28,078 nt of DNA. Origin: Acidobacteriota bacterium. GTDB lineage: Bacteria; Acidobacteriota; Thermoanaerobaculia; Multivoradales; UBA5704. The stretch covers positions 1 through 28,078 of the forward strand of contig JBDTZG010000064.1 in NCBI GenBank assembly GCA_040005235.1, read 5' to 3'. Of the stretch, positions 1 through 24,699 are shown in pieces. The stretch's first letter is position 1. Each line of letters opens with the position of its first letter. The notes beneath the pieces were generated by a model. That model was not told where the DNA came from and did not search any database. It saw only the letters and a program-made list of their open reading frames with translations. A program made the position numbers and the translations under genes.

Positions 1-465
1 GCGGACGCCCTGTTCGGCAAGCGCAGCGAGGTCAAGGACAGCCACGACCGCTACGCCAACATCGAGATCAACTATCTCCTCCAGCGCATCGAGTCCTACC
101 GGGGGCTGGCGATCCTGGCGACCAACCTCAAGAGCTCGCTGGATTCCGCCTTCCTGCGGCGCCTCCGCTTCCTGTTGGATTTCCCCGCCCACGCCGAGGG
201 CGAGCGCCGGGAGATCTGGAAGCGCGTCTTCCCGCCCGAGACGAAACAGACCGGCCTGGAATTCAGCCGCCTGGCCCGTCTCGGATTGAATGGTGGAGCT
301 ATCAACAACGTGGCCATGAACGCCGCCTTCCTCGCCGCCGACACGGGAACGCCGGTGACCATGCCGCACGTCCTCGCCGCCGCCCGCACCGAGTTCCTGA
401 AGCTCGGCCGTCCCATCAACGAAGCCGATTTCCGCTGGACCGAGCCCGTGGAGGCGAAGGCATGA
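1..465 (+). CDS. eCIS AAA+ ATPase (Afp15/Pvc15-like), C-terminal part; 5' end is outside the window
   Basis: Frame 1 is open from base 1 and reads ADALFGKRSEVKDSHDRYANIEINYLLQRIESYRGLAILATNLKSSLDSAFLRRLRFLLDFP. This is the post-Walker-B, sensor-1 and arginine-finger region characteristic of eCIS ATPases. Stop TGA at 463-465. The track ORF 175..465 is only its tail. Confidence 0.93.
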   Translation, partial: ADALFGKRSEVKDSHDRYANIEINYLLQRIESYRGLAILATNLKSSLDSAFLRRLRFLLDFPAHAEGERREIWKRVFPPETKQTGLEFSRLARLGLNGGAINNVAMNAAFLAADTGTPVTMPHVLAAARTEFLKLGRPINEADFRWTEPVEAKA

Positions 466-716
466 AAGTGAACCTCCACATCGATCGACTGGTTCTGGAA
501 GGGATCGATCTCGATCACGCGCAGCGCCCGCTTCTGCAGGCGGCGGTGGAAGCCGAGTTGGGACGGCTGATCGGCGAGGGCGGGATCGGAAGCCTGGCGT
601 CGGGCGGAGCCGTGCCGTCCGTGCGGGCGGCAGGGTTCGAGATCGGCGCAGATGGGAGTCCTTCGCGGTTGGGGCACCAGATCGCGCAGTCGGTTTATGG
701 GGGGACTGGGAAGTGA
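462..716 (+). CDS. Small eCIS-associated hypothetical protein (84 aa)
   Basis: ATGA overlap with the ATPase stop. The pattern 'LHIDRLVLEG...QAAVEAELGRL...LGHQIAQSVY' resembles small proteins typically found between the ATPase and DUF4157 genes of eCIS loci. Confidence 0.8.
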   Translation: MKVNLHIDRLVLEGIDLDHAQRPLLQAAVEAELGRLIGEGGIGSLASGGAVPSVRAAGFEIGADGSPSRLGHQIAQSVYGGTGK

Positions 717-2134
717 TGAGGCAGGCCGCGGCCCCGCCTCAAGCGAAAACCGCGCCGCCGGTCCAGGATGGCGTCCTCCAACGAAAGTGCGCGTGCGGCC
801 AGCATGCCGGCGGTGGGAAGTGCGAGGAGTGCAAAAAAAAGCAGAAGATGCAGAGGCGGAGGAGCCAGGGCACCGAGCCTTCCGAGGTCCCGCCGATCGT
901 CCATGAGGTGCTGCGATCGTCCGCGCCGCCTCTGGATGCCGGGACGCTCGGCTTCATGGAGTCCCGGTTCGGCCGGGACTTCAGCCAGGTGCGGGTCCAT
1001 ACGGGTACGCAAGCGGCGGACTCAGCACGAGTCGTAAATGCCCAGGCTTACACGGTCGGGCGTGATGTGGTTTTCGGTGCGGGAGAGTACGCACCGGGAA
1101 CCATCGCGGGGCGACGACTGCTCGCGCATGAGTTGACCCACGTCGTACAGCAGGCCGGCGGTGGGCGGAGATCGAGCGTCCAGCGCAGCTCGATAGGCTC
1201 TCTGCCAAGTATCGTCCTTGGACCAGAAGATGACGCGCTCGAGAGCGAAGCGCATCGCGCCGCCGAGACACTCGACGAAGAGGAAGACGAAGTGAAGGTT
1301 TTGGAGCGCTCTGTGGGGCCCTCTTTGCAGCGCCACCCGGCGTTTGTGGGTTTGGATGAAGCCGGCCCCGTGGCAGACCTGACAGGCAAGACAGAAGACC
1401 AGTTGTTCAGTTGCATGAAGGGCGCGAAAGCTGACCCGGAAGAATGTGTTCCGCGCCGGTCTCTGGCGTGGGACGACTTCACAGGTGCGCCAAAAGGTAA
1501 TTTTTCGGCCTTTACGACCGCGCCAGTGAAAGATAAACCAATGGATCCGCAGAGGGCGGCATGCCTCCAGCGAGTCCTCGGCAAAACGACGGATCAGACG
1601 CGAGTCTTCCAGGCCCAGCTTGATTCAGGTAAATCGTGGGTCAGAGGTGAATTCAAAGACCCGACCAATCCCTCCAAGACACAATGCGGCAAAAACATCA
1701 GGAACTGCGAATCACAGTTCAAGAAGTTGAAGCCCAATCAAACAGGAACGATGACGCTGAGTTCGAATCCCAATTCAAAATGCGGCGCAGCCATAACGCC
1801 TAATCCTTCTGTGACGGCGACCTCAAAGGATGAATGCAAAACTGTGCTAGGCGCGGAGTGCACGCGTGTGGCCCAACTTGAATCCGAACGGTTACTGAGA
1901 CACGAGCAAGGCCACTTCGACATCAGTTGTGTGTTTGCTAGGAAAGCGAACTCGGCGCTCATCGCAGGTGGAAATTTCAAGGACATTAAGGCGGCGGTCG
2001 AGCCGTTAGGATCAAAAAAGGACAAAGCGTTCAAAAAATATGATTTTGATACTGACCATGGTTGCATTGCAGCGGAGCAGGCCAACTGGGCAGGGGAGCT
2101 TGCCAACGGCCTGCCCAAAATCACGATTCCTTGA
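713..2134 (+). CDS. DUF4157 (eCIS core domain) cargo protein 1 with C-terminal DUF922-like Zn-metallopeptidase tip
   Basis: GTGA overlap (ATG at 716 is an alternative start). N-terminal LQRKCACGQHAGGGKCEECKKK. DUF4157: PLDAGTLGFMESRFGRDFSQVRVHT...AYTVGRDVVFGAGEY...LLAHELTHVVQQ (HELTH 1127-1141). Tip: LAWDDF...SWV...LLRHEQGHFDI (1901-1915)...YDFDTDHG...EQANW, which follows the DUF922 pattern. Confidence 0.88.
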   Translation: MMRQAAAPPQAKTAPPVQDGVLQRKCACGQHAGGGKCEECKKKQKMQRRRSQGTEPSEVPPIVHEVLRSSAPPLDAGTLGFMESRFGRDFSQVRVHTGTQAADSARVVNAQAYTVGRDVVFGAGEYAPGTIAGRRLLAHELTHVVQQAGGGRRSSVQRSSIGSLPSIVLGPEDDALESEAHRAAETLDEEEDEVKVLERSVGPSLQRHPAFVGLDEAGPVADLTGKTEDQLFSCMKGAKADPEECVPRRSLAWDDFTGAPKGNFSAFTTAPVKDKPMDPQRAACLQRVLGKTTDQTRVFQAQLDSGKSWVRGEFKDPTNPSKTQCGKNIRNCESQFKKLKPNQTGTMTLSSNPNSKCGAAITPNPSVTATSKDECKTVLGAECTRVAQLESERLLRHEQGHFDISCVFARKANSALIAGGNFKDIKAAVEPLGSKKDKAFKKYDFDTDHGCIAAEQANWAGELANGLPKITIP

Positions 2135-2310
2135 GCGAGCATCATGATGACCTTTCAGTTTCCCGCGTCTCCAAGGACGGCCTTCTGCGGATACAAATCG
2201 CACAGTCCATGGGTAGGGGCTGGGGAAGTGAATCGGCGGGGCACGAACGGCGCGGTCGGCGCGGCTGGGAGAGTCCGGCCTGGGAACTTTATTCGCGGTA
2301 AACGGAGGGC

Positions 2311-3750
2311 GTGGCGATGAAGCGTCAGTGCGGGCCGCGAGCCCGGGACCGGTCGACAGGACCTTTCGCTACCGACCTTCCGCGCCGCGCAAAAGGGACG
2401 GTGCCTCCGGTTGTCGATGACGTGCTGCGCTCGTCCGGACAGCCGCTCGATGCCGCGACGAGTAGCGTGATGAAAACCCGTTTCAACCAGGACTTCAGTA
2501 GGCTGCGGGTACATACCGGCAGCCATGCGGCCGAATCGGCGAGATCCGTCGCGGCTCAGGCATTTACGGTAGGGCGCAACGTCGTATTCGGTGCCGGCCA
2601 GTACAGTCCGGAAACTCCAGCCGGCCGGCGGCTCCTCACTCATGAGTTAACCCACGTCGCCCAGCAGAAAGAGTTGCCGGACCTTGCGCCCGTGGGAATC
2701 GTACCCGCGGGTGACGCGAGTGAACGGGAGGCGGACCGCGCCGCCGCGGGCGTGACTCCAATCGGGGAGATCCGGCAGAGACCGGCGGAGCCGGTTCTTC
2801 AGCGGCTTGGCGTCTGGCAAGCCATCACCAGGTTTTTCGGCGGCGGAACTTTTGAGCCCAAGGAGCTGAAGGACTACCTGGCCTTTCTCGATACGACTCA
2901 CAAGATCGAAGGGGACTTCGACAGCGACAACAAGGCGCGTGACGTCGTCCGCCGGTGGAAGGCGGGTGAGAAGGATTTCCAGATCCTCCCGGTTTTCACG
3001 CGGGCCCTGCTGATCGAAGAGATGATCACCGGCCATCCCTCCGAAGCGGATCAGGAAGCCACCATGGATTTGCTGCGCGAGTCAATCGTCGGCGAGCGTA
3101 CCGCCATTCTCCAGAAGGTCGGCCTCCCCAAGCTGAAAGGGGCACTCGACGGCAAGGAGCTGAAAGAGCTTCTCGTCTTGGCCGATCAGGAGCAGGACGA
3201 TCTCTCCCTGGAAGAGATGGGCACTTGGTCTGTAGAGGGCATCCTCAAGAACGTCTTCCGCCATGGCGACGTCAAGGTGATCGATTTCCTGATTCGCGAG
3301 AGCTACAAGATATTGAGCTTCACCGGAGCCTTCGACAAGTGGGAGTACCCGGACGGCCGGATCGAGGAGACCTTGATCCCCGGCCTGTGGGGGAATACCT
3401 GCCGCGTCGTCCGGCCGCTTTGTCCGCGTGCCAGAGAGATCCGCTTGAACGTCGCGATGACGAATGCGGAAGCGAGCGCCACCCTGGTTCATGAAGTCGC
3501 TCATGCGGAGGTCAACGCATCCGAGGTCGACGCTCGCGTGGAAGGCGAGAAGTACCGAATCCGCCATGGCATGGCCCCCGCGGAACCGGACTACCGCAAG
3601 CCTGACGGCTCGATCGATGAGCCGGCCATCCGCAAGGAGGTCACGGCGTCTCCTCATTACAACCCAGTGGGCAGGACACGGGTCGGACGCAGGTATGAAG
3701 GGGAGAAGGAAGTCAGAGGCTGGCATCTCCCGGCCAAGAAAGTGAAGTGA
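2311..3750 (+). CDS. DUF4157 cargo protein 2 with shared helical middle domain and C-terminal HExxH (gluzincin-like) tip
   Basis: GGAGGG RBS before GTG 2311 (ATG 2317 is an alternative). DUF4157 with HELTH at 2641-2655, then DASEREADRAA, LQR, and a middle domain containing IEGDFDSDNKAR. The tip has ATLVHEVAHA (3490-3504) followed by EVDAR. Confidence 0.87.
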   Translation: MAMKRQCGPRARDRSTGPFATDLPRRAKGTVPPVVDDVLRSSGQPLDAATSSVMKTRFNQDFSRLRVHTGSHAAESARSVAAQAFTVGRNVVFGAGQYSPETPAGRRLLTHELTHVAQQKELPDLAPVGIVPAGDASEREADRAAAGVTPIGEIRQRPAEPVLQRLGVWQAITRFFGGGTFEPKELKDYLAFLDTTHKIEGDFDSDNKARDVVRRWKAGEKDFQILPVFTRALLIEEMITGHPSEADQEATMDLLRESIVGERTAILQKVGLPKLKGALDGKELKELLVLADQEQDDLSLEEMGTWSVEGILKNVFRHGDVKVIDFLIRESYKILSFTGAFDKWEYPDGRIEETLIPGLWGNTCRVVRPLCPRAREIRLNVAMTNAEASATLVHEVAHAEVNASEVDARVEGEKYRIRHGMAPAEPDYRKPDGSIDEPAIRKEVTASPHYNPVGRTRVGRRYEGEKEVRGWHLPAKKVK

Positions 3751-3761
3751 GGAAACGATCG

Positions 3762-4055
3762 ATGGACAACCCGAGGATCGAGATCAAGGCAACGGTCGAG
3801 GAGTTTGCGGAGCGGGCCATGACGGACCATTTTGAGTCCGGTGCCGAGGTGAGCTATGCCGCGACAGCGCTCCGGCTCGGCGCGCCCGAGCGTTTTGCCG
3901 GGCGCCATCTGGCGATCTTCCATGACCAGGAGGTACCCGCGGACGGTCCCTGGCGGCAGGTCGGCCGGCTCTTACGGTTCAAGATCCTGGAGAGTCTGTT
4001 GACGAGTGAGGATGTCCTGTTCGTCGGAGCCGTCCATGATCTTGTGGTGGAGTGA
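3762..4055 (+). CDS. Small acidic hypothetical protein, candidate immunity/inhibitor for cargo protein 2
   Basis: Lies immediately after the cargo-2 stop. ATG 3762 is preceded by GAGGA; the alternative GTG 3747 overlaps the stop. About 97 aa, beta-rich-looking, no recognisable family. The immunity role is inferred from position only. Confidence 0.6.
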   Translation: MDNPRIEIKATVEEFAERAMTDHFESGAEVSYAATALRLGAPERFAGRHLAIFHDQEVPADGPWRQVGRLLRFKILESLLTSEDVLFVGAVHDLVVE

Positions 4056-4157
4056 GAAATCTCCACGGTTCCTTCACGCCTCGGTAACGTATTCAGCCTT
4101 TCGTCGCCTACTTAAGACAGCGCCGACATTCAGGTTGAGCGGCGAGGAACGGAACGA

Positions 4158-5858
4158 GTGAATCGATCGAATCTGGCACCAGCCCAGCAACCGGCAGCCC
4201 CCTTCCGCCCTGCGGGGCTTCTGCAGCGCCATTGCGCCTGCGGGCAGCACACTGGCGGCGGCGAGTGCGAGGAGTGCCGCAAGAAGGGCAAGAAAGAGTC
4301 CGCTGGCGGTGGGCTTCAGAGAAAGCTGGCCCTGGGGCCGCCGGAAGATCTCTTCGAGCGGGAGGCGGACCGGGTCGCCGAAACGGTGACGAGCGGCCGC
4401 TCCGGCGCACCTTTCGGCATCTCCGCCGCGCGGCCCTCGCTCCGCAGGATGGCGGCAACGGAAGGCCCGGGAGAGGCGCCGGCCGTCGTAGGCGAAGCCC
4501 TGCGCTCTCCGGGACAGCCGCTCGGCGCCGGAGTCCGGGCGTTCATGGAGCCTCGGATCGGTCATGACTTCAGCCGGGTGCTGGTCCACACCGGCGATGT
4601 GGCCTCGCGTTCGGCGGCCGCGGTGGACGCGCTGGCCTACACGGTCGGCAGCGACGTTGTCTTCCGGGACGGGCAATACGCGCCGGAGACGCCCGAAGGG
4701 CGGAAACTGCTCGCTCATGAGCTCACCCACGTCGTCCAGCAGAGGGAGAGCCCGACGACGGTCCAGAGGTCGGCTTCCGGGTTCTTCAGCAGCATCTTCC
4801 GCAGCATCTTCCGCTACGGCTTCAATGATTCGGATATCAAGGAGTATCTGGCGCGCCTGGAGAAGTCGGGCAAGATCGAAGACGACTATGACAGTGACCT
4901 CAAGGCCCGGCAGATCGTCGAGGAGGGAAAGTCCCGTTCCCTGTCGGTGAAGATCAGGACGCTCCTTGTCCGGGAGATGCTGGAGGGCGCCACGCTCTGG
5001 GGCGATGAAGGCGCGATCATCAAGCTATTCCGTGAGTCGAATCCTGAGGACCGCAAGGACATCGTCAAGAGCATTGGCCGGGAGAGGATCCTGGACGACT
5101 TCAGCTTCGGCAATTTCCGGACAATGGAGGCAATCCTTCTTACTCCCGCCGACTTCTCCGACTCCAAACTGGTGGAACGGCTTCAGGCTCTGTCCGAGTC
5201 GGACTTGAGTGACTATCAGAAGAGCGCGCCTGATCCCAAGGTGAAGGAGCAGATCACCAAGCTGATCCGTCTCAAAAAGATCACCACGCCGCTGGGACTG
5301 GACGTCGAGGTCGGACAGGACGGTTCGGCGAAGCTGGACATCAAGGGTGCGGAAGTGACTTTCCTGCCGGATACCCGCAGCGCGGCCGTCCAGGAAGAGG
5401 GGGGAAGGACGGGGGTTGTCAGCCTCAAGACCGACACTCCCGGAGGCACCCTGAACAAGGGTGTCGTGACTTCGGTCGATCCCGTGCCGAAGGTCCGGAT
5501 CACGCTTCAGACGAGCTACAACCCGACCGCCTTGCCCGAAAACCCATCCAAGTACGGGCGAGGAACGGTCCCCGGAGATCCACAGACGGACCTGCGGTAT
5601 CACGAGGGCCGGCACGGAGTCGATTTCCTGTTTTTTCTCCGCACGTATGACCTCCCTGCTTTCCAGGGCAAGGTGGGAGACACCGAGCAACAGTTCCAGG
5701 GGGCCCAGAAGAAGTACCAGGACGACATGAAAGCGTATTTCACGCGTGCGGTCGAGTTCTCGGTACGGAACACGGATTGCCCAGGGAAACCTATTTCCGC
5801 GGAAGGGCTCCGTAAGATCAATTTGAGCGCGGAATTCTGCTCCGAGCCGGCGCGCTGA
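4158..5858 (+). CDS. DUF4157 cargo protein 3 with shared middle domain and a distinct C-terminal HExxH tip
   Basis: N-terminal LQRHCACGQHTGGGECEECRKK, then LQRKLALGPPEDLFEREADRVAE. DUF4157 with HELTH at 4716-4730, then VQR and a middle domain containing IEDDYDSDLKAR. The tip has SKYGRGT...LRYHEGRHG (5601-5615)...TDCPG. Confidence 0.88.
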   Translation: MNRSNLAPAQQPAAPFRPAGLLQRHCACGQHTGGGECEECRKKGKKESAGGGLQRKLALGPPEDLFEREADRVAETVTSGRSGAPFGISAARPSLRRMAATEGPGEAPAVVGEALRSPGQPLGAGVRAFMEPRIGHDFSRVLVHTGDVASRSAAAVDALAYTVGSDVVFRDGQYAPETPEGRKLLAHELTHVVQQRESPTTVQRSASGFFSSIFRSIFRYGFNDSDIKEYLARLEKSGKIEDDYDSDLKARQIVEEGKSRSLSVKIRTLLVREMLEGATLWGDEGAIIKLFRESNPEDRKDIVKSIGRERILDDFSFGNFRTMEAILLTPADFSDSKLVERLQALSESDLSDYQKSAPDPKVKEQITKLIRLKKITTPLGLDVEVGQDGSAKLDIKGAEVTFLPDTRSAAVQEEGGRTGVVSLKTDTPGGTLNKGVVTSVDPVPKVRITLQTSYNPTALPENPSKYGRGTVPGDPQTDLRYHEGRHGVDFLFFLRTYDLPAFQGKVGDTEQQFQGAQKKYQDDMKAYFTRAVEFSVRNTDCPGKPISAEGLRKINLSAEFCSEPAR

Positions 5859-5873
5859 AAGGGAACCGACCTG

Positions 5874-6536
5874 ATGACCAACTTCCCCCGTTTCCCCCGC
5901 ATCCTCAAAGGCGGCCTCGTGCTGATCGATCCGGTCACGGCGGCGGTGCGGCGGATCGTCGTGCTGCAGTACAACCCGGACTCGCTGTCGCGGACGCTGC
6001 AGGTGCAGGGGGTGGGCGACAGTGCCGACCGCTCGCAGGCACTGCGGCTCAAGGCGCCTCCGGTCGAGACGCTCAAGCTGGAGGCGGAGATCGACGTGAC
6101 GGACCAGCTCGAGCTGCCGGACGAGGGGCAGAACCGGATCGCCGTGGAGCTCGGGCTGCATCCCCAGTTGGCCGCGCTGGAGACGATCATCTACCCCTCC
6201 AGCGCCCAGGTTTTGGAGAACCATTCGCGGGCTCAGTCGGGAACGCTGGAGATCGCGCCTATGGAAGCGCCGCTGACGATCTTCGTCTGGAGCAAGAGCC
6301 GCATCCTGCCCGTGCGGGTGACGGACTTCAGCGTCACCGAGGAGGCGTTCGATCCCAACCTCAACCCCATCCGCGCCAAGGTGAGCCTGGGCATGCGGGT
6401 GCTCAATATCAACGACGTCGGCTTCGTCCACAAAGCCGGCAGCCTGTTCATGAGCTATTTCCAGCAGAAGGAGCAACTGGCGGCGAAGATCGCCGGCGGC
6501 GGCTTCGGCCCCCTGGGAATCGGAGGCATCCCATGA
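5874..6536 (+). CDS. eCIS tube-initiator-like protein (N-terminal half of the Afp7/Pvc7 type; CIS tube family)
   Basis: Motifs 'IVVLQYNPDSLSRTL', 'PLTIFVWSKSRILPVRVTDFSVTEEAFDPNLNPIRAKVSLGMRVL' fit gp48/gp54-like tube initiators. It sits just before the LysM and hub genes. Confidence 0.8.
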   Translation: MTNFPRFPRILKGGLVLIDPVTAAVRRIVVLQYNPDSLSRTLQVQGVGDSADRSQALRLKAPPVETLKLEAEIDVTDQLELPDEGQNRIAVELGLHPQLAALETIIYPSSAQVLENHSRAQSGTLEIAPMEAPLTIFVWSKSRILPVRVTDFSVTEEAFDPNLNPIRAKVSLGMRVLNINDVGFVHKAGSLFMSYFQQKEQLAAKIAGGGFGPLGIGGIP

Positions 6537-6895
6537 GCGACCTGTTCCAGAACATGCTGCAAGCGGTGCCGCTGTCCAACACGCTCTTTTCACCCTCCAG
6601 CCGCTATTACGGCATCGAGACGGTGAAGCTGATGACGGCGGAGGGCGAGGAGGTCATTTATCTGCGGCGCCGATTCGTGCCCCAGCCGGAGCGTTTCGGG
6701 CTGCTGCGCGTACACGCCGTGACCGAGGGCGACCGGCTGGACAACATCGCGGCCCGGCACCTGGGTGACCCCGAGCTTTTCTGGCGGCTCTGCGACGCCA
6801 ACCGGGCGTTGCGGCCGGACGAGCTGACGGAGGAGATCGGCCGGCGGCTGCGCATCCCCTTGCCGGAGGGCCTGCCGGGCGGGGACGATGAATAA
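6533..6895 (+). CDS. LysM-domain baseplate protein (gp53/P2 gpX-like)
   Basis: 'HAVTEGDRLDNIAARHLGDPELFWRLCDAN...GRRLRIP' is a LysM fold motif. ATGA overlap with the upstream gene. Confidence 0.9.
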   Translation: MSDLFQNMLQAVPLSNTLFSPSSRYYGIETVKLMTAEGEEVIYLRRRFVPQPERFGLLRVHAVTEGDRLDNIAARHLGDPELFWRLCDANRALRPDELTEEIGRRLRIPLPEGLPGGDDE

Positions 6896-8030
6896 CGGTT
6901 TCTATCTGACGCTGATGGTAGGGCCGATGGTGCCTCTGCCGGTGGGACAGGACGTGATCGACGCCCTGGCCAGCGTGCAGGTCACGGTGTCGTCCGGCGC
7001 CATGGCGGAGAGCGGTTTCCAGCTCACCTTCAACCTGGGGAAGCGGTCGCCGCTCGAAACCCTGTTCCTGGTGGCGGGAAGCTCGCTGCCGCCCATCATC
7101 CGCGTCGTTTTGATCGCCACTGTAAACGGCCAGGCCGAGGTGCTGATCGACGGCGTGGTCACGCGCACGGACGTCGCGTCCGGATCGGACAGCTCCACCT
7201 CGACGCTGACGGTGACGGGGACCGACCTGACGGCGGTGATGAACTGGGACCTGTTCAATCCGATCAAGAACCTGCCGCTTCCGGCCATGCCGAACGAAGC
7301 CCGGGTGCTGTTGCTGCTGGCGAAATACGCGCTGTTCGGGGTCATCCCGATGGTGATCCCCAGCGTGCTGATCGACATCCCGATCCCCACGGACCGTATC
7401 CCGCGGCAACAGGGGAGCGATCTGGCCTACATCCGGGCCCTCGCCGAGGAGGTGGGCTACGTCTTCTACCTCAAGCCGGGGCCGGTGACGGGGACCAGCA
7501 TCGCGTACTGGGGGCCGGAGATCAAAGTCGGCGTGCCGCAGCCGGCCCTCAATGTGGACATGGACGCCGAGACCAACGTCGAATCGCTGAGCTTCAGCTA
7601 CAGCGGGGAGAATGCCGCGCTGCCGATCGTCTACGTGCAGAACCAGGAGAGCAAGGTGCTCTTTGTAATCCCCATTACCAGCATCACGCCGCTCAACCCG
7701 CCGCTGGGCCTCGTGCCGGCGATCCCCAAGCAGTTCCCGGAGTTTCGGGAGACGGCCAAGTACGGGCCGGTGCGGGCGGCTCTGGTGGGCCTCGCCAAGG
7801 CGGCGCAAACGGCGGAAGTGGTGAATGCCCAGGGGAACCTCGACGTGCTGCGCTACGGCCGGCCCCTGCGCGCCCGCGAACTGGTGGGGGTGCGCGGCGT
7901 GGGCACGGCGTTCGACGGCCTCTATTACGTCAAGAACGTGACGCACAACATCAAACGGGGCGAGTACAAGCAGAGCTTCAACCTCTCCCGCAACGGCCTG
8001 ATCTCGACGGTTCCCAGGGTGCCCGTATGA
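6888..8030 (+). CDS. Baseplate hub protein (gp27/VgrG N-terminal/P2 gpD-like)
   Basis: Motifs 'VLIDGVVTR', 'TLTVTGTDLTAVM', 'QQGSDLAYIRALAEEVGYVFY', 'VGVRGVGTAFDGLYYVKNVTHNI'. Located between the LysM and spike genes. Confidence 0.85.
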   Translation: MNNGFYLTLMVGPMVPLPVGQDVIDALASVQVTVSSGAMAESGFQLTFNLGKRSPLETLFLVAGSSLPPIIRVVLIATVNGQAEVLIDGVVTRTDVASGSDSSTSTLTVTGTDLTAVMNWDLFNPIKNLPLPAMPNEARVLLLLAKYALFGVIPMVIPSVLIDIPIPTDRIPRQQGSDLAYIRALAEEVGYVFYLKPGPVTGTSIAYWGPEIKVGVPQPALNVDMDAETNVESLSFSYSGENAALPIVYVQNQESKVLFVIPITSITPLNPPLGLVPAIPKQFPEFRETAKYGPVRAALVGLAKAAQTAEVVNAQGNLDVLRYGRPLRARELVGVRGVGTAFDGLYYVKNVTHNIKRGEYKQSFNLSRNGLISTVPRVPV

Positions 8031-8542
8031 GCCATGGAGAGAAGTTCTACGGCAAATACCGCGGCACGGTGATCAACAACATCGATCCCATGCAGCTCGG
8101 CCGCATCCAGGCGATGGTGCCGGACGTCTCGGGTTTCATCCCCACCAGTTGGGCCATGCCCTGCGTGCCGCTCGCCGGCAAGCAGATGGGCACCTTCGTG
8201 GTGCCGCAGATCGGCTCCGGCGTGTGGGTGGAGTTCGAGCAGGGAGACCCTGACTATCCGATCTGGGTCGGCGGCTTCTGGGGGATCGCCGCCGAGGTGC
8301 CGGTGCTGGCGCTGGCGGGAGTACCGGGGAATCCCAACATCGTGCTCCAGAGCACGCTCCAGAACACGCTGGTGATCAGCGACCTGCCTGGGCCGACCGG
8401 CGGGATCATGCTCAAGAGCACCACGGGCGCGACGCTCATCGTCAACGACACGGGGATCTACATCCAGAACGGCAAGGGCGCGAGCCTGGTCATGGTGGGA
8501 CCCTCGGTAACGATCAACAACGGCGCGCTGGTGGTCATCTGA
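8027..8542 (+). CDS. Central spike protein (gp5 OB-fold/baseplate assembly protein V)
   Basis: 'YGKYRGTVINNIDPMQLGRIQAMVP...WAMPC...PQIGSGVWVEFEQGDPDYPIWVG' is an OB-fold signature, followed by short beta-helix repeats. Confidence 0.92.
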   Translation: MSHGEKFYGKYRGTVINNIDPMQLGRIQAMVPDVSGFIPTSWAMPCVPLAGKQMGTFVVPQIGSGVWVEFEQGDPDYPIWVGGFWGIAAEVPVLALAGVPGNPNIVLQSTLQNTLVISDLPGPTGGIMLKSTTGATLIVNDTGIYIQNGKGASLVMVGPSVTINNGALVVI

Positions 8543-8557
8543 AAGGGGAGGAGAACG

Positions 8558-8881
8558 ATGCCTGGATTCCTTCTTCACGTCGGCGCCACGGTGCTCTGCT
8601 CGCACGGCGGGCAGGCGCAGCCGACGGTCTCCAATCCCCGCGTGACGGTGAACGGCATGCCGACGGTCATCCTCGCGGCCCCCTACGTGGTGGCGGGCTG
8701 CGCCATGCCGCCGCCGACCGCCGGCAACGGCCCGTGCGTCACCGCGCAATGGATCACCGCCGCCACGCGGATCACCTCGAACGGCCAGCCCCTTCTGCTG
8801 CTGGACAGCCAGGCCATCTGCGCGCCCACGGGCACGCCCTTGTTGATCGTGGCCACCCAGACGCGGGCGACCGGAATGTAA
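8558..8881 (+). CDS. PAAR-like (DUF4280-type) spike tip protein
   Basis: GGAGGAG RBS. 'GATVLCSHGG...VTVNG...GC...PC...W...NGQPLLLLDSQAIC' supplies Cys/His candidate Zn ligands. Directly follows the spike gene. Confidence 0.82.
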   Translation: MPGFLLHVGATVLCSHGGQAQPTVSNPRVTVNGMPTVILAAPYVVAGCAMPPPTAGNGPCVTAQWITAATRITSNGQPLLLLDSQAICAPTGTPLLIVATQTRATGM

Positions 8882-8893
8882 CGTGAGGACCGG

Positions 8894-9253
8894 ATGAACA
8901 TCGATTATCCCTTCCATTGCGATCGCCTCGGCCGCACCGCCACGACCGGGTACGACGACCACGTCCGGGACATGATCGAGCAGTTGCTCTTCACCAATCC
9001 CGGCGAGCGGGTCAACCGGCCGGACTTCGGCAGCGGCCTGCTGCAACTGGTCTTCGCGCCCAACAGCCCGGAGCTGGCGGCGGCTCTCCAGTTCACCATC
9101 CAGGCCTCCCTCCAGCGCTGGCTGGGCGACGTGATCCAGGTGCAGGCCCTGGAGGTCACCAGCCGCGACTCGACGCTGTACGTCGTCCTTCAGTACGTCG
9201 TGCTCCGCACCGGCGAGACGCGCGTCGACACCTTCGAACGGAGCGGCTCATGA
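8894..9253 (+). CDS. gp25/GPW-family baseplate wedge/sheath initiator (Afp9-like)
   Basis: 'IEQLLFTNPGERVNRPDFGSGL' is the gp25 signature. Confidence 0.93.
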   Translation: MNIDYPFHCDRLGRTATTGYDDHVRDMIEQLLFTNPGERVNRPDFGSGLLQLVFAPNSPELAAALQFTIQASLQRWLGDVIQVQALEVTSRDSTLYVVLQYVVLRTGETRVDTFERSGS

Positions 9254-11832
9254 AGAGCGATCCCGGATTGATCTGCAACGACGAGCGGCGCCATCACGAC
9301 GTCCGCAAGGCGAAGGACTGGAACGGGCTCGACTACCTGGAGGTCGGCGAGGACCAGCAGACGGTCACGCTCTATTTCCTCGACAAGGCACCCGCGGGCC
9401 TGCAGCCGGAAAACATTGTCATCGAGCCGTGCGGCGGCGGTAGGCCGGTGCGGGTGGTGGACTTGCAATTCTGCCGCATGGAGGACGAGGAGCGGGACGA
9501 CTGCCTGCACCTCCGGCTCGACGGGATCGGCGGCTTCTCGCCCTACCGGCTCTGCCTGCGCGAGACGGATGAGCAGGGCCGGCCGACCTCGCGGCCGTTC
9601 CCCGGTATCGACCCTCGCTACGCCTGTCTCGATCTCGATTTCAAGATCGGTTGCCCGAGCGATTTCGATTGCAGGGAGGAGCCGCACTGCCCGCCGGAGC
9701 CCCTGGAGGAGCCGGCGATCAATTACCTGGCGAAGGATTACGCCAGCTTCCGGCAACTGATCCTGGACCGCATTGCGGTCACCCTGCCGGATTGGCGCGA
9801 GCGCCACGTGCCGGACCTCGGCGTTACGCTCGTGGAGCTGCTGGCCTACGTGGGCGATCACCTGAGCTATTACCAGGATGCCGTCGCCACCGAGGCCTAC
9901 CTCGACACGGCGCGGCGGAGGACCTCCGTCCGGCGTCACGTCCGCCTCGTGGACTACCCGATGCACGAGGGCTGCAACTCCAGAGCGTGGGTGTTCGTGG
10001 ACGCGAGCGCCGACCAGTCCCTCAAGCCCGGTCAGTTCCATTTCATCACCGGTTTCAATCCCTCGCCGGCCGCGGGCAAGCCGCTCACCCGCGAAGACTT
10101 GAAGGGTTTCTCCGCGGTCCTGTACGAGGTCTTCGAGCCGCTGGAAGACCGGCCGGTCGAGCTGCGCGAGGCGCACAACGAGATCCGCCTTTATACCTGG
10201 GGAGATCGCGAGTGCTGCCTGCCGCGCCATGCCACGCGGGCCACGCTGCGCGACGAATGGATCAAGGAGGAGCCGCCGACGCCGAAGCCGGAGAAGCCCT
10301 ACGGGTATGGGAAGCCGGATCACGACGACGACTGCGCGCCGTCGCCGGAGCCCCGCGAGCCCCGCCGCCGCCTGGACCTGAATCCGGGCGACCCGCTCCT
10401 CTTCGAAGAGGTGCGCGGCCCGAGGACCGGCCATCCCGCCGACGCCGACCGCTCCCACCGGCAGGTGGTGCGGCTGACGCGTGTAACGACGAGCGTGGAC
10501 GAGCTCTACAACCAGCCGATCGTGGAGATCGAGTGGGCGCGCGAGGACGCCCTGACCTTCCCGCTCTGCGTCTCCAGCCTCGGCGGCAAGAATTGCCGCA
10601 TCCTGGACCCGGTGAGCGTGGCGCGGGGCAACATTCTGCTGGTGGATCACGGCCGCACGGTGGAGGACAAGGAATGGGACCCGGTGCCACCGGGCAAGAC
10701 CAAGCCCCTTTGTGAAGGCGAGGGACGGCTCGCTGAAACGCCGCTGCTCTCCGGCCGGTTCCGGCCCTTCCTGGAGCAGGGGCCGCTGTCGTTCCGCCAG
10801 CCTTTGCCGCCGCGCTCGCGCCATGTCCCGGCCTCGCGCCTGCTTGCCCAGGACCCGCGCCAGGCCATGCCTCAGGTGACGATCTCCGAGGCGTGGAGCG
10901 TACGGCGGGACCTCCTGGAGTCCGGTCCCGGGGACCGGCACTTCGTGGCGGAGGTGGACGATGACGGCCGCGCCCACCTGCGGTTCGGCGACGGCGAGAT
11001 GGGCTTCGCGCCCCCGGCGGGCAAGGTCTTCCAGGCCTCCTACCGCATGGGGAACGGGCCGGCGGGAAACGTGGGCGCGGAGTCGATCCGTCACCTCGTC
11101 CTAGCGGACGGCCTCACGATCTCCGGCGTGAATCTGCGGCCGCGGAACCCGTTGGCGGCGCAAGGCGGAACGGCTCCCGAGCCGCTCGCCGAGGTCCGTC
11201 TACTGGCGCCACACGCCTTCCGAAAGGATTTGCAGCGGGCGATCACCGCGGACGACTACGCCCGCATCGTCGAGCGCGAGTTTCCAGGCCGGGTGCAGCG
11301 CGCCGCCGCCGTGATGCGTTGGGCGGGGAGCTGGCCCGAGGTGCTGGTGGCCGTGGACCCGTGGAGCGGCGAGGAGAACGTGGGCGGGCTGCTGCACGAG
11401 ATCGAGCGGAAGCTCCGCCGCTACCGGCGGATCGGCCACGACGTCGTGGTGAAGCGGGCCCTCTCCGTGCCGCTCTACATCGAACTGCGCGTCTGCGTGC
11501 GTCCTTCTTTCGTGAGCGGCCACGTCGAGGCCGCGCTCCTGGAGATCCTGGGGAGCCGGGCGCTGCCGGATGGCCGGCGCGGTTTCTTTCATGCCGACAA
11601 CCTCTCCTTTGGCGAGGGGATCGCCCTCTCGCGGCTGATCGCCGCCGCGCAGTCGGTCACCGGCGTGGAGAGCGTGGAGATCGTCAAGTTCCACCGGCTC
11701 CACGAGGGTCCCGCCGGCGAGATCGAAAAAGGTTTCCTTCCTCTGGCCCCGCTGGAGATCGCCCGGCTCGATGGAGACCGTCGGTTCCCGGACAACGGTT
11801 GGATCAAGCCCGAGATGCGAGGTGGCCGATGA
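9250..11832 (+). CDS. Baseplate wedge protein 1 (gp6/gpJ-like, Afp11-like), about 860 aa
   Basis: Start reassigned to ATG 9250 (ATGA overlap with the gp25 stop); the track extension from 8917 overlaps gp25. Motifs 'YLAKDYASFRQLILDR', 'DLGVTLVELLAYVGDHLSYYQDAVATEAYLDTARRR', 'LRFGDG', 'GNGPAGNVGA', 'RAITADDY'. Confidence 0.9.
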   Translation: MKSDPGLICNDERRHHDVRKAKDWNGLDYLEVGEDQQTVTLYFLDKAPAGLQPENIVIEPCGGGRPVRVVDLQFCRMEDEERDDCLHLRLDGIGGFSPYRLCLRETDEQGRPTSRPFPGIDPRYACLDLDFKIGCPSDFDCREEPHCPPEPLEEPAINYLAKDYASFRQLILDRIAVTLPDWRERHVPDLGVTLVELLAYVGDHLSYYQDAVATEAYLDTARRRTSVRRHVRLVDYPMHEGCNSRAWVFVDASADQSLKPGQFHFITGFNPSPAAGKPLTREDLKGFSAVLYEVFEPLEDRPVELREAHNEIRLYTWGDRECCLPRHATRATLRDEWIKEEPPTPKPEKPYGYGKPDHDDDCAPSPEPREPRRRLDLNPGDPLLFEEVRGPRTGHPADADRSHRQVVRLTRVTTSVDELYNQPIVEIEWAREDALTFPLCVSSLGGKNCRILDPVSVARGNILLVDHGRTVEDKEWDPVPPGKTKPLCEGEGRLAETPLLSGRFRPFLEQGPLSFRQPLPPRSRHVPASRLLAQDPRQAMPQVTISEAWSVRRDLLESGPGDRHFVAEVDDDGRAHLRFGDGEMGFAPPAGKVFQASYRMGNGPAGNVGAESIRHLVLADGLTISGVNLRPRNPLAAQGGTAPEPLAEVRLLAPHAFRKDLQRAITADDYARIVEREFPGRVQRAAAVMRWAGSWPEVLVAVDPWSGEENVGGLLHEIERKLRRYRRIGHDVVVKRALSVPLYIELRVCVRPSFVSGHVEAALLEILGSRALPDGRRGFFHADNLSFGEGIALSRLIAAAQSVTGVESVEIVKFHRLHEGPAGEIEKGFLPLAPLEIARLDGDRRFPDNGWIKPEMRGGR

Positions 11833-14800
11833 GTGACAATTGTTCTTGCGGAGGTGGCGCGTGCGGTTGCGGGTGCTGTGAAGGAACCGAGCCCCTGACG
11901 CCGCGAACGATCGCCAACCGGCCCGGCCTGGATGCCCTTGCCTACCGCGTGGGTACGCACGCCTCGTTCCTGGAGACCATGCAGGCACGCCTTTCCAGCT
12001 CCGATTTCATGGCGCTGGAAGGGCTGACCACCCGCGACGCTGCCGATCCCTCCCTGGCCCTGCTGGATGCCTGGGCCCTGGTGGGCGACGTGCTGACGTT
12101 CTACCAGGAGCGCATCGCCAACGAGGGCTATCTGCGCACGTCCACGGAACGGCGCTCCGTGCTGGAGTTGGCGCGGCTGGTGGGTTATGAGCCGCGCCCG
12201 GGAGTGGCGGCGAGCACGTATCTGGCCTACTTGCTGGACGAAGGGCCCGAGGCGTTGATCCCCGCGGGCGCCGCCGCCCGCAGCGTGCCCGGTCCCGGCG
12301 AGCTGCCGCAGACCTTCGAGACGATGGAAGACCTCACCGCCTGCGCGGCCTGGAACAACCTCCAGGTGCGGCTCACGCGGCCGCAGAATGCAATCACGAC
12401 GGAGAATGACCGGGGGAGGGGCGTTTATCTCCAGGGGGTCAACACGCAGGTGAAGGTGAACGATCCGCTGCTGATCGGTCCGAAAGGCCGGCCGGACCTC
12501 TACCGGGTAGTCATGGTAGAGCCGGACGCGTTGAAGGACCGGACGCGAGTCACCGTGCAGCCCTGGTTGAGGACTGTCCCGCAGGCGCCGCCTCCGCCGC
12601 CCGCGATCGACTTCATCAAACTGGACCTCAGCAATCTGCAAAGCCGCAAGCTGCCGGCCAACACCCCCCCCCGGGTGATCAGCGGTCTCAAGGCGATCGA
12701 GGCAAAGGACCCGTTGAAGATCAACGAATCCGAGCTGCGGGTCTTGATGCAGGAGGCCCAGAGCGGCCTGGAGAAGGGACCCTCAACGAAAGTGGCGGCG
12801 TGGCTCATGAGCGTCATCGCGAACCTCCAGGAGGCGTTGCAATCCGATCTCTTCAAGGAGAGGAGCGTCGCCTCCGCGTCGCCGGCGATCCCTTCGAGCG
12901 TGCTCATCGACCAGCTCGCGAAACCGCCCAAGCCGCAGAACCGGAGCAGTGCTCAACTGGATCGCAGCTCCCAGGAGCTCTTCCAGCCGGGGTCGGATGT
13001 GAACGGCAAGCTGCTGGCGTCGTCCCGGCCGGAGCTGCGCGGCATGCTGTATACGGCCTGGGCGAACGCGCCCGCCACCGCGCTCCCCGATTTCGAGGTC
13101 CACGCATTGCGCGTCCGGGCCTCGGTCTTCGGCCACAACGCGCCACGGAAATTGACCAGCTCGAAGCCGGATGATCAGGGCGTTATCCTGTTTACCCAAG
13201 GCGACGATCGGCCCCTCGAGGAGGTCGACAAGTTCGATCCGTCCAACCCCGACCCGGACGGGCTGTCGCGGATCGTCTGGCTCGACGCCCCGTATCCCCA
13301 GATAAGGCCCGAGAGCTGGGTCGTGTTCCACCGTCCCTCCGTGACCGAACGGATCAAGGAGCCACTGATCATCGCGAGGGTCCGGGAGACCGCCGAGCGC
13401 TCCCGGGAGGCCTACGGTATCGCCGCCAAATCGACACGGCTTGCCGTGAACAAACCCTGGCTCGACCTCAATTCGAATGATGAGGAGGAGCCAGAAGACT
13501 CCTTCGACGTCATCCGCGGCACCGCCATCTTCGCCCAGAGCGAGCTCCTGCCGCTGGCGGAGGCGCCGATCGATCCCGTGGAAGAGGCGGTGGGCGGCGG
13601 CGAGATCGAGCTAGCCCGGTTCTATGACGGCCTGATGACCGGCCGCTGGCTGATCGTCAGCGGCGAGCGCACCGACGTGCGGGAGATCGATTTCGACGGC
13701 AAGGAGCAGGTGGTGCCGGGAATCAAGGCGAGCGAGCTGATGATGCTGGCCGGTGTAAAGCATGGCGTCAGCACGATCGATTCCCTCCCCGGCTCCGACA
13801 CGGTTCCGGAGAAGCCTCGACCGAAAAGGCCGCTTCCCGGCGACCGCACCCACACTACGTTGACGCTCGCGAAGGAGCTGCAGTACCGGTACAAGCGAGA
13901 CACCGTCGTGATCTACGGCAACGTCGCCAAGGCCACCCACGGCGAGACGCGCTTCGAGGTGATGGGGAGCGGCGACGCCAGCAAATCCCTGCAATCCTTC
14001 ACGTTGAAGCAGCCGCCTCTCACCTACGTCTCGGCGCCCACGCCGTCCGGCGTCGAGAGCACGCTCAAGATGCGGGTCAACGACCTCCTCTGGCACGAGG
14101 CGGACAGCCTGGTCGGCCTCCAGAAGACCGACCGGAGTTACATCGTGCGCATCGACGCCGGCGGCCAGACCACGGTTGTGTTTGGCAACGGCGAGCGCGG
14201 CGCGCGACTGCCCACCGGCCCCGAGAACGTGCGGGCGACCTACCGCAACGGCATCGGCAAGGGGGGCAACGTCAAGAAGGAACAGATCACCCAACTGGCC
14301 ACCCGGCCTCTGGGCGTCAAGGACGTGATCAATCCGCTCCCGGCCACCGGCGGCGCGGACAAGGAGAGCCGCGATCAGGCACGGCGCAACGCGCCCCTGG
14401 CGGTGCTGGCCCTCGATCGCCTCGTCTCGGTGCAGGACTACGAGGATTTCACCCGCACCTTCGCCGGCATCGGCAAGGCCCGGGCCACGCTCCTCTCGGA
14501 CGGCTTCGCCGAGCTCGTCCACGTCACCATCGCGGGAGAGGACGACATCCCGATCGGAACGGATTCCGAGCTGCTCCAGAATCTCGAAGCGGCCCTGCGC
14601 TTGTATGGCGATCCGCGCCAAGCGTTGCTCATCGACGTGCGCGAGCGATCCTTCCTGATCGTCGAGGCCGAGGTGCGGGTGCTGCCGGATTATCTCTGGG
14701 AGAAGGTGGAGCCGAAGATCCGCGCCGCCATGCTCCAGGCGTTCGGGTTCGACCGCAGCGACCTGGGGCAGGACGCGGTTTTGAGCGAGGCCTACCGCGC

Positions 14801-15023
14801 CATCCAAAGGGTGCCGGGGGTCGATTTCGTGGACGTGAACGTGTTCACGACCCGCGATCCCGAGGACCTCCTGGCGGAGACCGATCTCAAGGATCAGCCG
14901 AAGAAGCGTCTCCGGGCCTCCCTGGCGGCGATCGACGACGACGGGACGATCCACCCCGCGCAACTGCTCTATTTATCGTCCGAGGTGGCGGACACGCTGA
15001 TCCTCAAGGAGCTGAAGTCATGA
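11829..15023 (+). CDS. Baseplate wedge protein 2 (gp6/gpJ-like), about 1064 aa
   Basis: Start reassigned to ATG 11829 (ATGA overlap). Motifs 'DVLTFYQERIANEGYLRTSTERRSVLELARLVGY', 'GNVAKATHGET', 'VVFGNGERGARLPTG', 'DRLVSVQDYEDF'. Confidence 0.9.
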   Translation: MSDNCSCGGGACGCGCCEGTEPLTPRTIANRPGLDALAYRVGTHASFLETMQARLSSSDFMALEGLTTRDAADPSLALLDAWALVGDVLTFYQERIANEGYLRTSTERRSVLELARLVGYEPRPGVAASTYLAYLLDEGPEALIPAGAAARSVPGPGELPQTFETMEDLTACAAWNNLQVRLTRPQNAITTENDRGRGVYLQGVNTQVKVNDPLLIGPKGRPDLYRVVMVEPDALKDRTRVTVQPWLRTVPQAPPPPPAIDFIKLDLSNLQSRKLPANTPPRVISGLKAIEAKDPLKINESELRVLMQEAQSGLEKGPSTKVAAWLMSVIANLQEALQSDLFKERSVASASPAIPSSVLIDQLAKPPKPQNRSSAQLDRSSQELFQPGSDVNGKLLASSRPELRGMLYTAWANAPATALPDFEVHALRVRASVFGHNAPRKLTSSKPDDQGVILFTQGDDRPLEEVDKFDPSNPDPDGLSRIVWLDAPYPQIRPESWVVFHRPSVTERIKEPLIIARVRETAERSREAYGIAAKSTRLAVNKPWLDLNSNDEEEPEDSFDVIRGTAIFAQSELLPLAEAPIDPVEEAVGGGEIELARFYDGLMTGRWLIVSGERTDVREIDFDGKEQVVPGIKASELMMLAGVKHGVSTIDSLPGSDTVPEKPRPKRPLPGDRTHTTLTLAKELQYRYKRDTVVIYGNVAKATHGETRFEVMGSGDASKSLQSFTLKQPPLTYVSAPTPSGVESTLKMRVNDLLWHEADSLVGLQKTDRSYIVRIDAGGQTTVVFGNGERGARLPTGPENVRATYRNGIGKGGNVKKEQITQLATRPLGVKDVINPLPATGGADKESRDQARRNAPLAVLALDRLVSVQDYEDFTRTFAGIGKARATLLSDGFAELVHVTIAGEDDIPIGTDSELLQNLEAALRLYGDPRQALLIDVRERSFLIVEAEVRVLPDYLWEKVEPKIRAAMLQAFGFDRSDLGQDAVLSEAYRAIQRVPGVDFVDVNVFTTRDPEDLLAETDLKDQPKKRLRASLAAIDDDGTIHPAQLLYLSSEVADTLILKELKS

Positions 15024-18513: not shown

Positions 18514-18551
18514 CTCGATGAGACGAACTGACTCATTCTACGAGGAGTTAC
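18510..18551. other. Nested inverted repeat between the eCIS stop codon and the tRNA 3' end (possible terminator or att-related site)
   Basis: GTAACTC (18510-18516) pairs with GAGTTAC (18545-18551). An inner pair is ATGAG (18518-18522) with CTCAT (18532-18536). No U-tract. Confidence 0.35.
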
Positions 18552-18577
18552 AGCACTTCACCACCCTGAGGAACGTT

Positions 18578-18653
18578 TGGTAGCGCATACGGGATTCGAA
18601 CCCGTGTTCCCGCCGTGAGAGGGCGACGTCCTAGACCCCTAGACGAATGCGCC
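18578..18653 (-). tRNA. tRNA-Glu (anticodon CTC)
   Basis: The reverse complement is GGCGCATTCGTCTAGGGGTCTAGGACGTCGCCCTCTCACGGCGGGAACACGGGTTCGAATCCCGTATGCGCTACCA (76 nt). It has an acceptor stem, anticodon loop CT-CTC-AC, GGTTCGAATCC T-arm and encoded CCA. Confidence 0.97.
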
Positions 18654-18671
18654 GTACGACCTGCGGCGCGT

Positions 18672-18701
18672 TTTATAGCACAACGCTTCGGGCGACTTCA
18701 A
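18672..18701 (-). promoter_or_regulatory. sigma70-type promoter for tRNA-Glu
   Basis: Minus strand reads TTGAAG-18 bp-TATAAA with an extended -10 TG and a GC-rich discriminator (ACGCGCCGC), about 18 bp upstream of the tRNA 5' end. Confidence 0.7.
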
Positions 18702-18725
18702 ATCCCCCCGGCGCTCTACACCGCT

Positions 18726-21143: not shown

Positions 21144-21316
21144 CAGGCGACCCTCCCGAAGAAACGGCAGAAACTCTCTCAAGCCGTCATACGGTCCCGG
21201 TTCGGGCTTTGTTTCGCCCGCCGGTTCCTACCTGGCGTAATCTTTCCTCTGTCACTCACCCCACTGTCGTTCATAGAAACCTCCTTCTAAGCACCGCGCT
21301 TACGAAAAGGACATCC

Positions 21317-24603: not shown

Positions 24604-24670
24604 CGGGGGGCTCTCCCAGAGTTTCGTCCAATCTTATGTTTTCTGCCGGCCGCAAGCGGGACCAAGAGCG

Positions 24671-24699
24671 TTTACAGCTCGCGGAGCCGGTGCTAGGGT
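24671..24699 (+). promoter_or_regulatory. Candidate sigma70 promoter for the M28 peptidase gene
   Basis: TTTACA-17 bp-TAGGGT with an extended -10 TG, about 50 bp upstream of the GGAGG RBS and ATG 24751. Confidence 0.45.

Follow-up and report, generated by a model that had tools for sequence, protein, structure and literature searches.

The DUF4157 domain is described as a core domain of extracellular contractile injection systems (eCIS) that is linked to toxins, several of which have been validated (Geller et al., 2021; PMC8213781). In eCIS loci, it is reported to sit N-terminal to the toxins (PMC8213781, PMC11297309). The present work concerns three DUF4157 genes of an Acidobacteriota bacterium. 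They are located in a stretch of 28,078 nucleotides (nt), hereafter the window, with which contig C57 (JBDTZG010000064.1, positions 1-28,078) begins, in a 6.2-Mb genome assembled into 140 contigs (GCA_040005235.1). Each gene encodes a DUF4157 carrier with a different C-terminal domain, or tip, containing a HExxH motif of its own. These genes probably encode injected cargo with swappable effector domains, and a small open reading frame (ORF) that follows the second one may encode an inhibitor of its tip.

Zhang et al. (2012; PMC3482391) defined the “PVC-metallopeptidase”, a probably self-releasing peptidase found at the N-terminus of polymorphic toxins that machines of the Photorhabdus virulence cassette (PVC) type deliver. 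HExxH toxin tips are reported among its partners, and many of these toxins are described as devoid of immunity genes. The likeness to the window cargos lies in an N-terminal HExxH domain (now PF13699) fused to highly variable C-terminal toxins, including HExxH ones. In contrast, none of the three window tips matches Tox-MPTase or any other toxin model of Pfam, nor do the members of the tip-3 family that were scanned, and tip 2 has a conserved downstream partner. Danov et al. (2024; PMC11297309) reported 1130 DUF4157-bearing predicted eCIS-associated toxins (EATs), 983 of them without any other annotated domain, and several EATs were found to be toxic to Escherichia coli or yeast (PMC8213781, PMC11297309). 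DUF4157 as a marker of eCIS toxins is common to these proteins and to the window cargos. However, the latter are encoded in the middle of an operon, between ATPase and baseplate genes, and not at its 3' end.

In AlgoCIS, the DUF4157 proteins Cgo1 and Cgo2 were shown by cryo-electron tomography and mass spectrometry to fill the lumen of the tube (Xu et al., 2022; PMC8894135). Cgo1 has two HExxH motifs, and its toxicity to E. coli is reported to be independent of both (PMC8894135). Cargo loading is reported to depend on the N-terminal domain and on an AAA+ ATPase, DUF4157 being dispensable (bioRxiv 10.64898/2026.05.27.728243). As judged from the published description of Cgo1, the two loci resemble each other in having several DUF4157 genes in one operon, in the succession of a disordered (in the window cargos, probably disordered) N-terminal domain, DUF4157 and a differing C-terminal domain, and in the second HExxH motif that the C-terminal domain of Cgo1 also carries. 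They differ in that three carriers are present here instead of two. Moreover, the available descriptions of Cgo1 and Cgo2 include neither the linker domain nor the Cys motif of the window cargos, and that of Cgo1 mentions no partner or immunity gene.

Hence, the kind of locus is already known, as polymorphic PVC-metallopeptidase toxins, EATs and AlgoCIS cargo. An initial annotation of this DNA had seen in it a candidate for an undescribed effector system; that novelty falls away in view of what is already in print (PMC3482391, PMC8213781, PMC8894135), while the reading as a polymorphic, modular toxin locus holds. Particular to the window are a DUF922 tip, the pair formed by tip 2 and its partner, and a large unnamed family to which tip 3 belongs.

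Three DUF4157 carriers and their tips

The three cargo genes are the following:

713-2134, + strand: cargo 1, 473 amino acids (aa), with an N-terminal Cys motif, DUF4157 at nt 929-1162 and tip 1 at nt 1310-2131
2311-3750, + strand: cargo 2, 479 aa, with a short N-terminus, DUF4157 at nt 2443-2673, a linker at about nt 2803-3135 and tip 2 at nt 3163-3747
4158-5858, + strand: cargo 3, 566 aa, with Cys and EREAD motifs, DUF4157 at nt 4518-4751, a linker at about nt 4794-5078 and tip 3 at nt 5280-5855

PF13699 is the former DUF4157, now called eCIS_core in Pfam, and has a cut-off of 22 bits. Cargos 1, 2 and 3 match it with 116.8, 103.3 and 110.4 bits, over residues 73-150, 45-121 and 121-198, respectively, and these are the only matches in the whole genome. 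Inside this domain, HELTH starts at residue 139 in cargo 1, 111 in cargo 2 and 187 in cargo 3. Nearer the C-terminus, each cargo has a second motif, namely HEQGH at residue 397 of cargo 1 (nt 1901-1915), HEVAH at residue 394 of cargo 2 (nt 3490-3504) and HEGRH at residue 482 of cargo 3 (nt 5601-5615). Since shuffled proteins of the same composition contain 0.007-0.025 HExxH per protein, chance does not account for three such motifs. In alignments of homologues, the second HExxH is invariant for each tip (25/25 rows for tip 1, 13/13 for tip 2 and 51/51 for tip 3).

The initial annotation was exact as to the ORFs, to HELTH and the second motifs at nt 1901, 3490 and 5601, and to the position of the genes between ATPase and baseplate genes, now supported by Pfam and by orthologues of the ATPase. 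The paralogy that it had proposed is limited to the N-terminal parts. Indeed, cargos 1 and 2 are 55% identical over 136 columns, all of the similarity being N-terminal. Cargos 1 and 3 share 46% identity over 217 columns, including a CACGxHxGGGxCEEC motif that is absent from cargo 2, and cargos 2 and 3 share 37% over 267 columns, including a domain of about 100 aa after DUF4157, with the shared pattern KEYLAxLxxxxKIExDYDSDxKAR..., that is absent from cargo 1. The tips were rightly said to be dissimilar beyond the motif: their mutual hhalign probabilities are 0.3-2.6%, i.e. no profile-profile relation. Searches with single proteins or profiles (E<=1) returned for the cargos no solved relative by sequence beyond chance-level rows, and NCBIfam has no family for any of the three cargos, nor for the 97-aa and 84-aa ORFs described below.

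The four-Cys motif occupies residues 26-40 of cargos 1 and 3 (nt 788-835 and 4233-4280) and is also present in many homologous DUF4157 carriers. Within what is presumed to be the loading region, it might form a small metal-binding knuckle. Its conservation in homologues supports the starts at 713 and 4158, which give long N-termini; the database gene calls for cargos 1 and 3 are shorter (408 and 469 aa). The linker domain that follows DUF4157 in cargos 2 and 3, with the consensus ...KEYLAFLxKNxKIENxYDSDNKAR..., has no match in Pfam and looks like a common adaptor between carrier and tip. An acidic motif, GPxDDxxExEADRxA, is found after DUF4157 in cargos 1 and 2 (1217-1264 and 2707-2745) and before it in cargo 3 (4326-4382); it recurs in many homologues.

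Orthologous loci were searched for by using the tube-like gene downstream of the cargos as an anchor, and were found in 14 of 31 related genomes, the window's own being counted. The number of DUF4157 carriers varies among them, with two in the closest locus (G004, 85% identity), two in G016, four in G019 and a single one of 1610 aa in G024. In these four loci, BLASTP similarity to the window cargos ends after DUF4157 or the first part of the linker, so that no tip is shared with the window. The linker domain gives access to a wider set. Eighty metagenome loci, all holding this domain, were fetched with alignment A3; they contain 87 linker-bearing ORFs, 74 of which are complete. When the last 170 residues of these 74 ORFs and of the two linker-bearing ORFs of the window are compared, they fall into 14 clusters. 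HExxH occurs in every member of three clusters (17, 14 and 9 members), that is, in 40 of the 76 proteins, and two of these three clusters contain window tips 2 and 3. Since both the number of carriers and the tips differ between loci, the locus is a polymorphic and modular toxin locus, as the term “polymorphic eCIS cargo cassette” in the initial annotation implied. In one of the metagenome loci, a carrier (L023, 5602-9411) combines two PF13699 stretches with a YkuD (L,D-transpeptidase) and a Tse3_N (muramidase) domain; by its domain content, it would be a cell-wall-directed cargo of the same carrier family.

Tip 1 (residues 200-473 of cargo 1) is Cys-rich. The word-indexed searches made with tips 1 and 2 covered proteins of 260-839 aa, and long carriers of these tips therefore could not appear. 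For tip 1, 25 cluster representatives were obtained, 24 of them with PF13699; in the alignment, the 24 homologue rows all carry PF13699, the 25th row being the window tip given without its carrier. A match to PF06037 (DUF922) at E<=0.01 is found in 20 of the 25 aligned members, the best at 3.6e-6. When the alignment is compared with six stand-alone DUF922 ORFs from genomes of the same order, hhalign gives a probability of 98.1% (E 9.8e-14) over 153 columns, covering tip residues 44-274. The family motifs TWxDF, HEQxHFD and YDxxTxHG...QxxW are shared, and they are invariant in the tip-1 alignment, so that tip 1 has the whole DUF922 domain. H198, E199 and H202 (tip numbering) are invariant, as are, fully or nearly, eight cysteines. 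Tip 1 can be assigned, at the level of sequence, to a Cys-rich DUF922-family domain, and DUF922 has been predicted to be zincin-like (Lenart et al., 2013; PMC3650047). Tip 1 differs from the stand-alone proteins by a Cys-rich insert of about 80-100 residues within the domain and by the DUF4157 carrier. All six stand-alone ORFs start with signal-peptide-like segments; because its relatives have such N-termini, tip 1 may be active in an oxidising compartment.

Tip 2 spans residues 285-479 of cargo 2, its folded core beginning at about nt 3223. It is rare: the protein search returned 7 clusters, and the tip occurs in 8 of the 80 metagenome loci. H110, E111, H114, E121 and E129 (tip numbering) are invariant in 13/13 rows. 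In the AlphaFold2 model (mean pLDDT 87.7, above 90 in the core), a beta-sheet is followed by helix 101-117, which carries HExxH, and then by helix 121-134, which bears E121 and E129. The model thus places the invariant HExxH on the helix that follows the sheet and a candidate third ligand on the next helix, as expected of a zincin. Foldseek returned nothing for tip 2 at E<=1e-3. As modelled, tip 2 is a rare, small zincin-like domain.

Tip 3 (residues 375-566 of cargo 3) gave only 3 clusters in the word-indexed search and 520 cluster representatives at E<=1e-3 in an exhaustive HMMER search, 262 of them at E<=1e-10. The proteins have 112-1239 aa among the 150 matches listed. The consensus reads TIQTxYGPG...SGYGRGTT...FHEGxHGxD...TDCVG, and H108, E109 and H112 (tip numbering) are invariant in 51/51 rows. 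Of the 51 tip-3 proteins scanned, 36 have PF13699, and this is the sole delivery domain seen in the set. The AlphaFold2 model (pLDDT 92.7, pTM 0.87) has six strands and then helices 105-122, 136-166 and 174-179, HExxH being located at the start of the first of these helices. No clear solved match to this fold was found in the Foldseek pdb, VIA wide and VIA second look searches. In a protein atlas, tip 3 lies beside unnamed clusters (0.96-0.93), and the first named cluster is DUF922 at 0.88. An assignment as a distant DUF922, considered because of this neighbour and of a similar motif spacing, found no support: hhalign gives 0.3%, and none of the 51 members matches PF06037 at E<=1. With a single-protein query, tip 3 was found in 0 of 300 other sampled genomes of the phylum, which makes its distribution look patchy; nor was it found in G013. 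Overall, tip 3 is part of a large unnamed family, mostly carried by DUF4157 proteins.

Further points of the initial annotation can be taken up here. It had left tips 2 and 3 without a characterised family; tip 2 now has a fold lead from its model, while tip 3 still belongs to an unnamed family. The modelling that it recommended has given models for both tips, that of tip 3 being confident, but Foldseek no clear match for either. Its suggestion to look for these tips on Rhs, CdiA, VgrG or LXG carriers led to none, as no RHS, VgrG, LXG, PAAR or CdiA domain of Pfam was present in the 51 tip-3 proteins scanned (150 listed, 520 found) or in the 25 tip-1 proteins, obtained from the 260-839 aa range.

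A small protein encoded next to tip 2

The initial annotation passed over an ORF situated between cargos 2 and 3:

3762-4055, + strand: 97-aa partner ORF, candidate cognate inhibitor or immunity protein; the ATG is 11 nt after the stop codon of cargo 2, with an alternative GTG at 3747

The partner ORF adjoins the 3' end of the tip-2 gene in 7 of 8 related loci, five of these cases being detected by tblastn and two more with a hidden Markov model (HMM). In the eighth locus, the contig stops 113 nt past the gene, too early to judge. In the other 78 loci that were searched, the HMM has no match at E<0.01. The partner protein has no signal peptide or membrane segment, no match in Pfam or NCBIfam and no usable match in the protein atlas. 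Its association with tip 2 is a new feature of this locus.

Co-folding of tip 2 with the partner gave ipSAE values of 0.74, 0.76 and 0.74 in three runs, the best control being at 0.00. Among solved complexes, 58 of 80 attain that mark, against 2 of 110 mismatched pairs. The contacts agree between runs to at least 67%, and the pLDDT of the partner is at least 86. The confidently predicted interface comprises, on tip 2, the HExxH region (residues 107, 110, 111, 114 and 115), residues 172-178 and loop 74-82, which is invariant; D22, likewise invariant, belongs to it on the partner. Since neither chain has a sequence relative in the PDB, recall of a solved complex is unlikely. Co-folding supports a putative binding of the partner to tip 2.

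Because the partner is predicted to cap the cleft of tip 2, the two proteins are read as a toxin-immunity pair. That ORF 3762-4055 encodes an immunity protein, the cognate inhibitor of tip 2, has a slightly better than even chance in our view. Such a pair hints at an antibacterial action with a cytoplasmic target. Metallopeptidase effectors with immunity proteins are described for type VI secretion systems (T6SS), namely VgrG2b C-ter/PA0261 and Tpe1/Tpi1 (PMC6899460). There, the immunity proteins are periplasmic and carry a signal peptide, a lipobox or a transmembrane helix. In contrast, the window partner has no such signal, the delivery would be of the eCIS type, and no sequence similarity was seen.

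Distant relatives of the partner are encoded in two related genomes (L100, 1324-1839, G374:C58, and L101, 280-1785, G041:C1), with E values of 7e-7 and 1.3e-6. Their N-termini resemble those of lipoproteins, and a tip-2 gene adjoins neither of them. They may be orphan immunity-like genes or reflect an unrelated use of the fold.

Proposed mode of action and alternative explanations

The overall explanation that we prefer, and hold to be reasonably probable, is that of cargo loaded by an ATPase, injected into a target cell and hydrolytic there through its tips, tip 2 being held off by its partner. The modules of the cargos would be, in order, an N-terminal loading region, probably disordered and containing the four-Cys motif in cargos 1 and 3, then DUF4157, the linker in cargos 2 and 3, and finally the swappable HExxH tip. 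If AlgoCIS and PVC are taken as models, the cargos would be unfolded and threaded into the tube lumen by the AAA+ ATPase whose gene lies immediately upstream, contraction of the sheath would expel them into the target cell, and the tips would refold there and act as metal-dependent hydrolases. Within the producer, the active-site cleft of tip 2 would be capped by the 97-aa protein, as the co-folding model predicts. What the analysis shows is the domain content, the homology, the conserved motifs, the variation among orthologous loci, the joint occurrence of tip 2 and its partner, and a predicted complex; we infer loading, injection, zinc binding, proteolysis, toxicity and target alike. The view that each of the three tips is an active zinc peptidase toxin is tentative, with somewhat less than an even chance of being right.

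Several observations weigh against this explanation. First, the toxicity of Cgo1 does not need its HExxH motifs, and a second HExxH therefore does not establish a protease toxin. The best zincin-like neighbour of tip 2 in structure comparison has a Z of 5.6, below the level of trust advised for the tool. Window tip 1 itself scores 20.1 bits (E 7.4e-4) against PF06037, below the 27-bit cut-off and over profile positions 88-153 only, and DUF922 itself is a predicted zincin. Second, as regards immunity, no candidate follows cargo 1 or cargo 3, and the partner HMM finds nothing in five more distant tip-2-like loci with room downstream. Third, cargo 2 lacks the Cys motif of its paralogues, and no remnant of it is present in the 177-nt upstream spacer. 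Finally, since the ATPase gene is truncated where the contig stops, the join to the contig that carries the sheath gene (see below) is a presumed one, and sequence alone cannot separate a released particle from a machine acting inside the producer.

The alternative that survives best accepts the cargo but not the protease: any toxicity of the second HExxH domains would stem from some other property, or these domains would be non-proteolytic metal enzymes or binding modules, and not catalytic protease toxins. We consider it unlikely. The invariance of the two histidines and the glutamate across 51, 25 and 13 rows argues for a conserved metal or catalytic site, and the partner is predicted to cover the HExxH cleft of tip 2, which would make sense were this site the harmful one.

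The main alternative to immunity is that the 97-aa ORF encodes a cargo-specific chaperone or adaptor, comparable to T6SS adaptors, that would stabilise tip 2 or present cargo 2 to the ATPase. The strict link of the partner to tip 2 and its predicted binding there would suit such a role as well, and cargo 2, having no N-terminal Cys motif, might need help for loading; however, the same tip family includes homologues of cargo 2 in which the Cys motif is present (P0035). From the literature, DUF4157 itself has been speculated to be a chaperone for eCIS toxins (PMC11297309), and the many PVC-type toxins reported to have no immunity genes (PMC3482391) also speak for this possibility. The predicted interface nevertheless covers HExxH and the invariant loop 74-82, which fits inhibition more than handing-over, and a chaperone or adaptor is in our opinion improbable.

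Least probable, and given little credit here, is a machine that is not extracellular but acts in or on the producer, with the HExxH proteins as effectors of self-directed lysis or development: a contractile injection system of Streptomyces has a reported role in differentiation (PMC11126660), an immunity-like inhibitor would fit a timed self-activation, and no tail-fibre or receptor-binding gene was identified, ORFs 15020-17122, 18615-20219 and 21209-23434 having no Pfam match, but the high turnover of tips across orthologous loci is typical of conflict systems against other organisms, and the related carrier L023 bears YkuD and Tse3_N, which target the cell wall.

A stronger claim can be formulated in addition to the preferred explanation of injected, partly inhibited cargo. 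For the first time, a zincin effector and its immunity protein, namely tip 2 and its partner, would be linked to an eCIS-type machine, the inhibitor plugging the HExxH cleft, and at the same time tip 3 would stand for a large (at least 520 clusters), mostly eCIS-borne effector family with HExxH in a fold without solved relative, hence for a new class of metal-dependent toxins. That both parts hold together is doubtful. If true, the pair would show a soil lineage of injection systems aimed at bacteria.

Within a known class, the locus is unremarkable but well deserves annotation, and it offers two moderately interesting leads. The payloads and targets of eCIS are largely unknown, and three concrete and testable effector domains are offered here. 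The candidate active-site inhibitor beside tip 2 lends itself to a simple toxin/antidote assay and gives a hint of a bacterial target. Tip 3 is common in metagenomes and models confidently, so that hundreds of proteins could be annotated from one solved structure. For the engineering of cargo for such particles, the linker domain may be of use, as may the swapping of modules observed across the 80 related loci.

Genes of the injection system

The cargo genes are located between an AAA ATPase gene and the tube and baseplate genes of a contractile injection system. The neighbouring features are the following:

1-465, + strand: C-terminal part of an AAA+ ATPase, Afp15/Pvc15-like, cut by the contig start; weak AAA matches
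462-716, + strand: 84-aa ORF between the ATPase and cargo 1, function unassigned, conserved position
5874-6536, + strand: tube-like gene, the anchor of the search for orthologous loci
6533-6895, + strand: 120-aa ORF, context
6888-8030, + strand: 380-aa ORF, context
8027-8542, + strand: spike OB-fold gene (Phage_base_V, Pfam)
8558-8881, + strand: DUF4280/PAAR-like gene (Pfam)
8894-9253, + strand: gp25 gene (Pfam)

Baseplate_J and DUF6519 genes are also found downstream of the cargos with Pfam. The window thus holds the ATPase, tube-like, spike, gp25 and Baseplate_J genes of an operon of this type. In 46 of the loci fetched, an ATPase ORF situated immediately 5' of DUF4157 genes is 54-78% identical to the ATPase fragment of the window. 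In G016, its orthologue, with 74% identity to window 1-465, is an open frame of 813 aa with winged-helix (WHD) and AAA domains, and the gene order is Pvc16_N, the WHD and AAA ATPase, a small ORF, two DUF4157 genes and the tube-like gene. The 84-aa ORF has no match in Pfam or NCBIfam, and homologues at the same position, with 36-63% identity, are present in eight loci (L004, L005, L015, L032, L034, L056, L060 and L085).

A sheath gene (10237-11925) and a T4 gp19-type tube gene (11932 to the contig end) are found at the terminus of contig C72 of the same genome (G000:C72, L097 9254-12342). Because they lie at the very end of that contig, the machine is most likely one operon split by the assembly between C72 and C57. 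With these two genes added to the ATPase, tube-like, spike, PAAR-like, gp25 and Baseplate_J genes of the window, the injection system would be complete in outline, as far as its annotation goes. On C72, a 227-aa ORF without Pfam match comes before these two genes, and still further upstream are two type I phosphodiesterase genes.

After the baseplate genes, where a tail-fibre or receptor-binding gene is expected, Pfam identified none in the window; ORF 23527-24696, like the three ORFs from 15020 to 23434 named above, has no Pfam match. Further downstream of the injection-system genes, a 753-aa ORF (24751-27012) combines a PA, a Peptidase_M28 and a transferrin-receptor-like dimerisation domain; it probably has nothing to do with the injection system.

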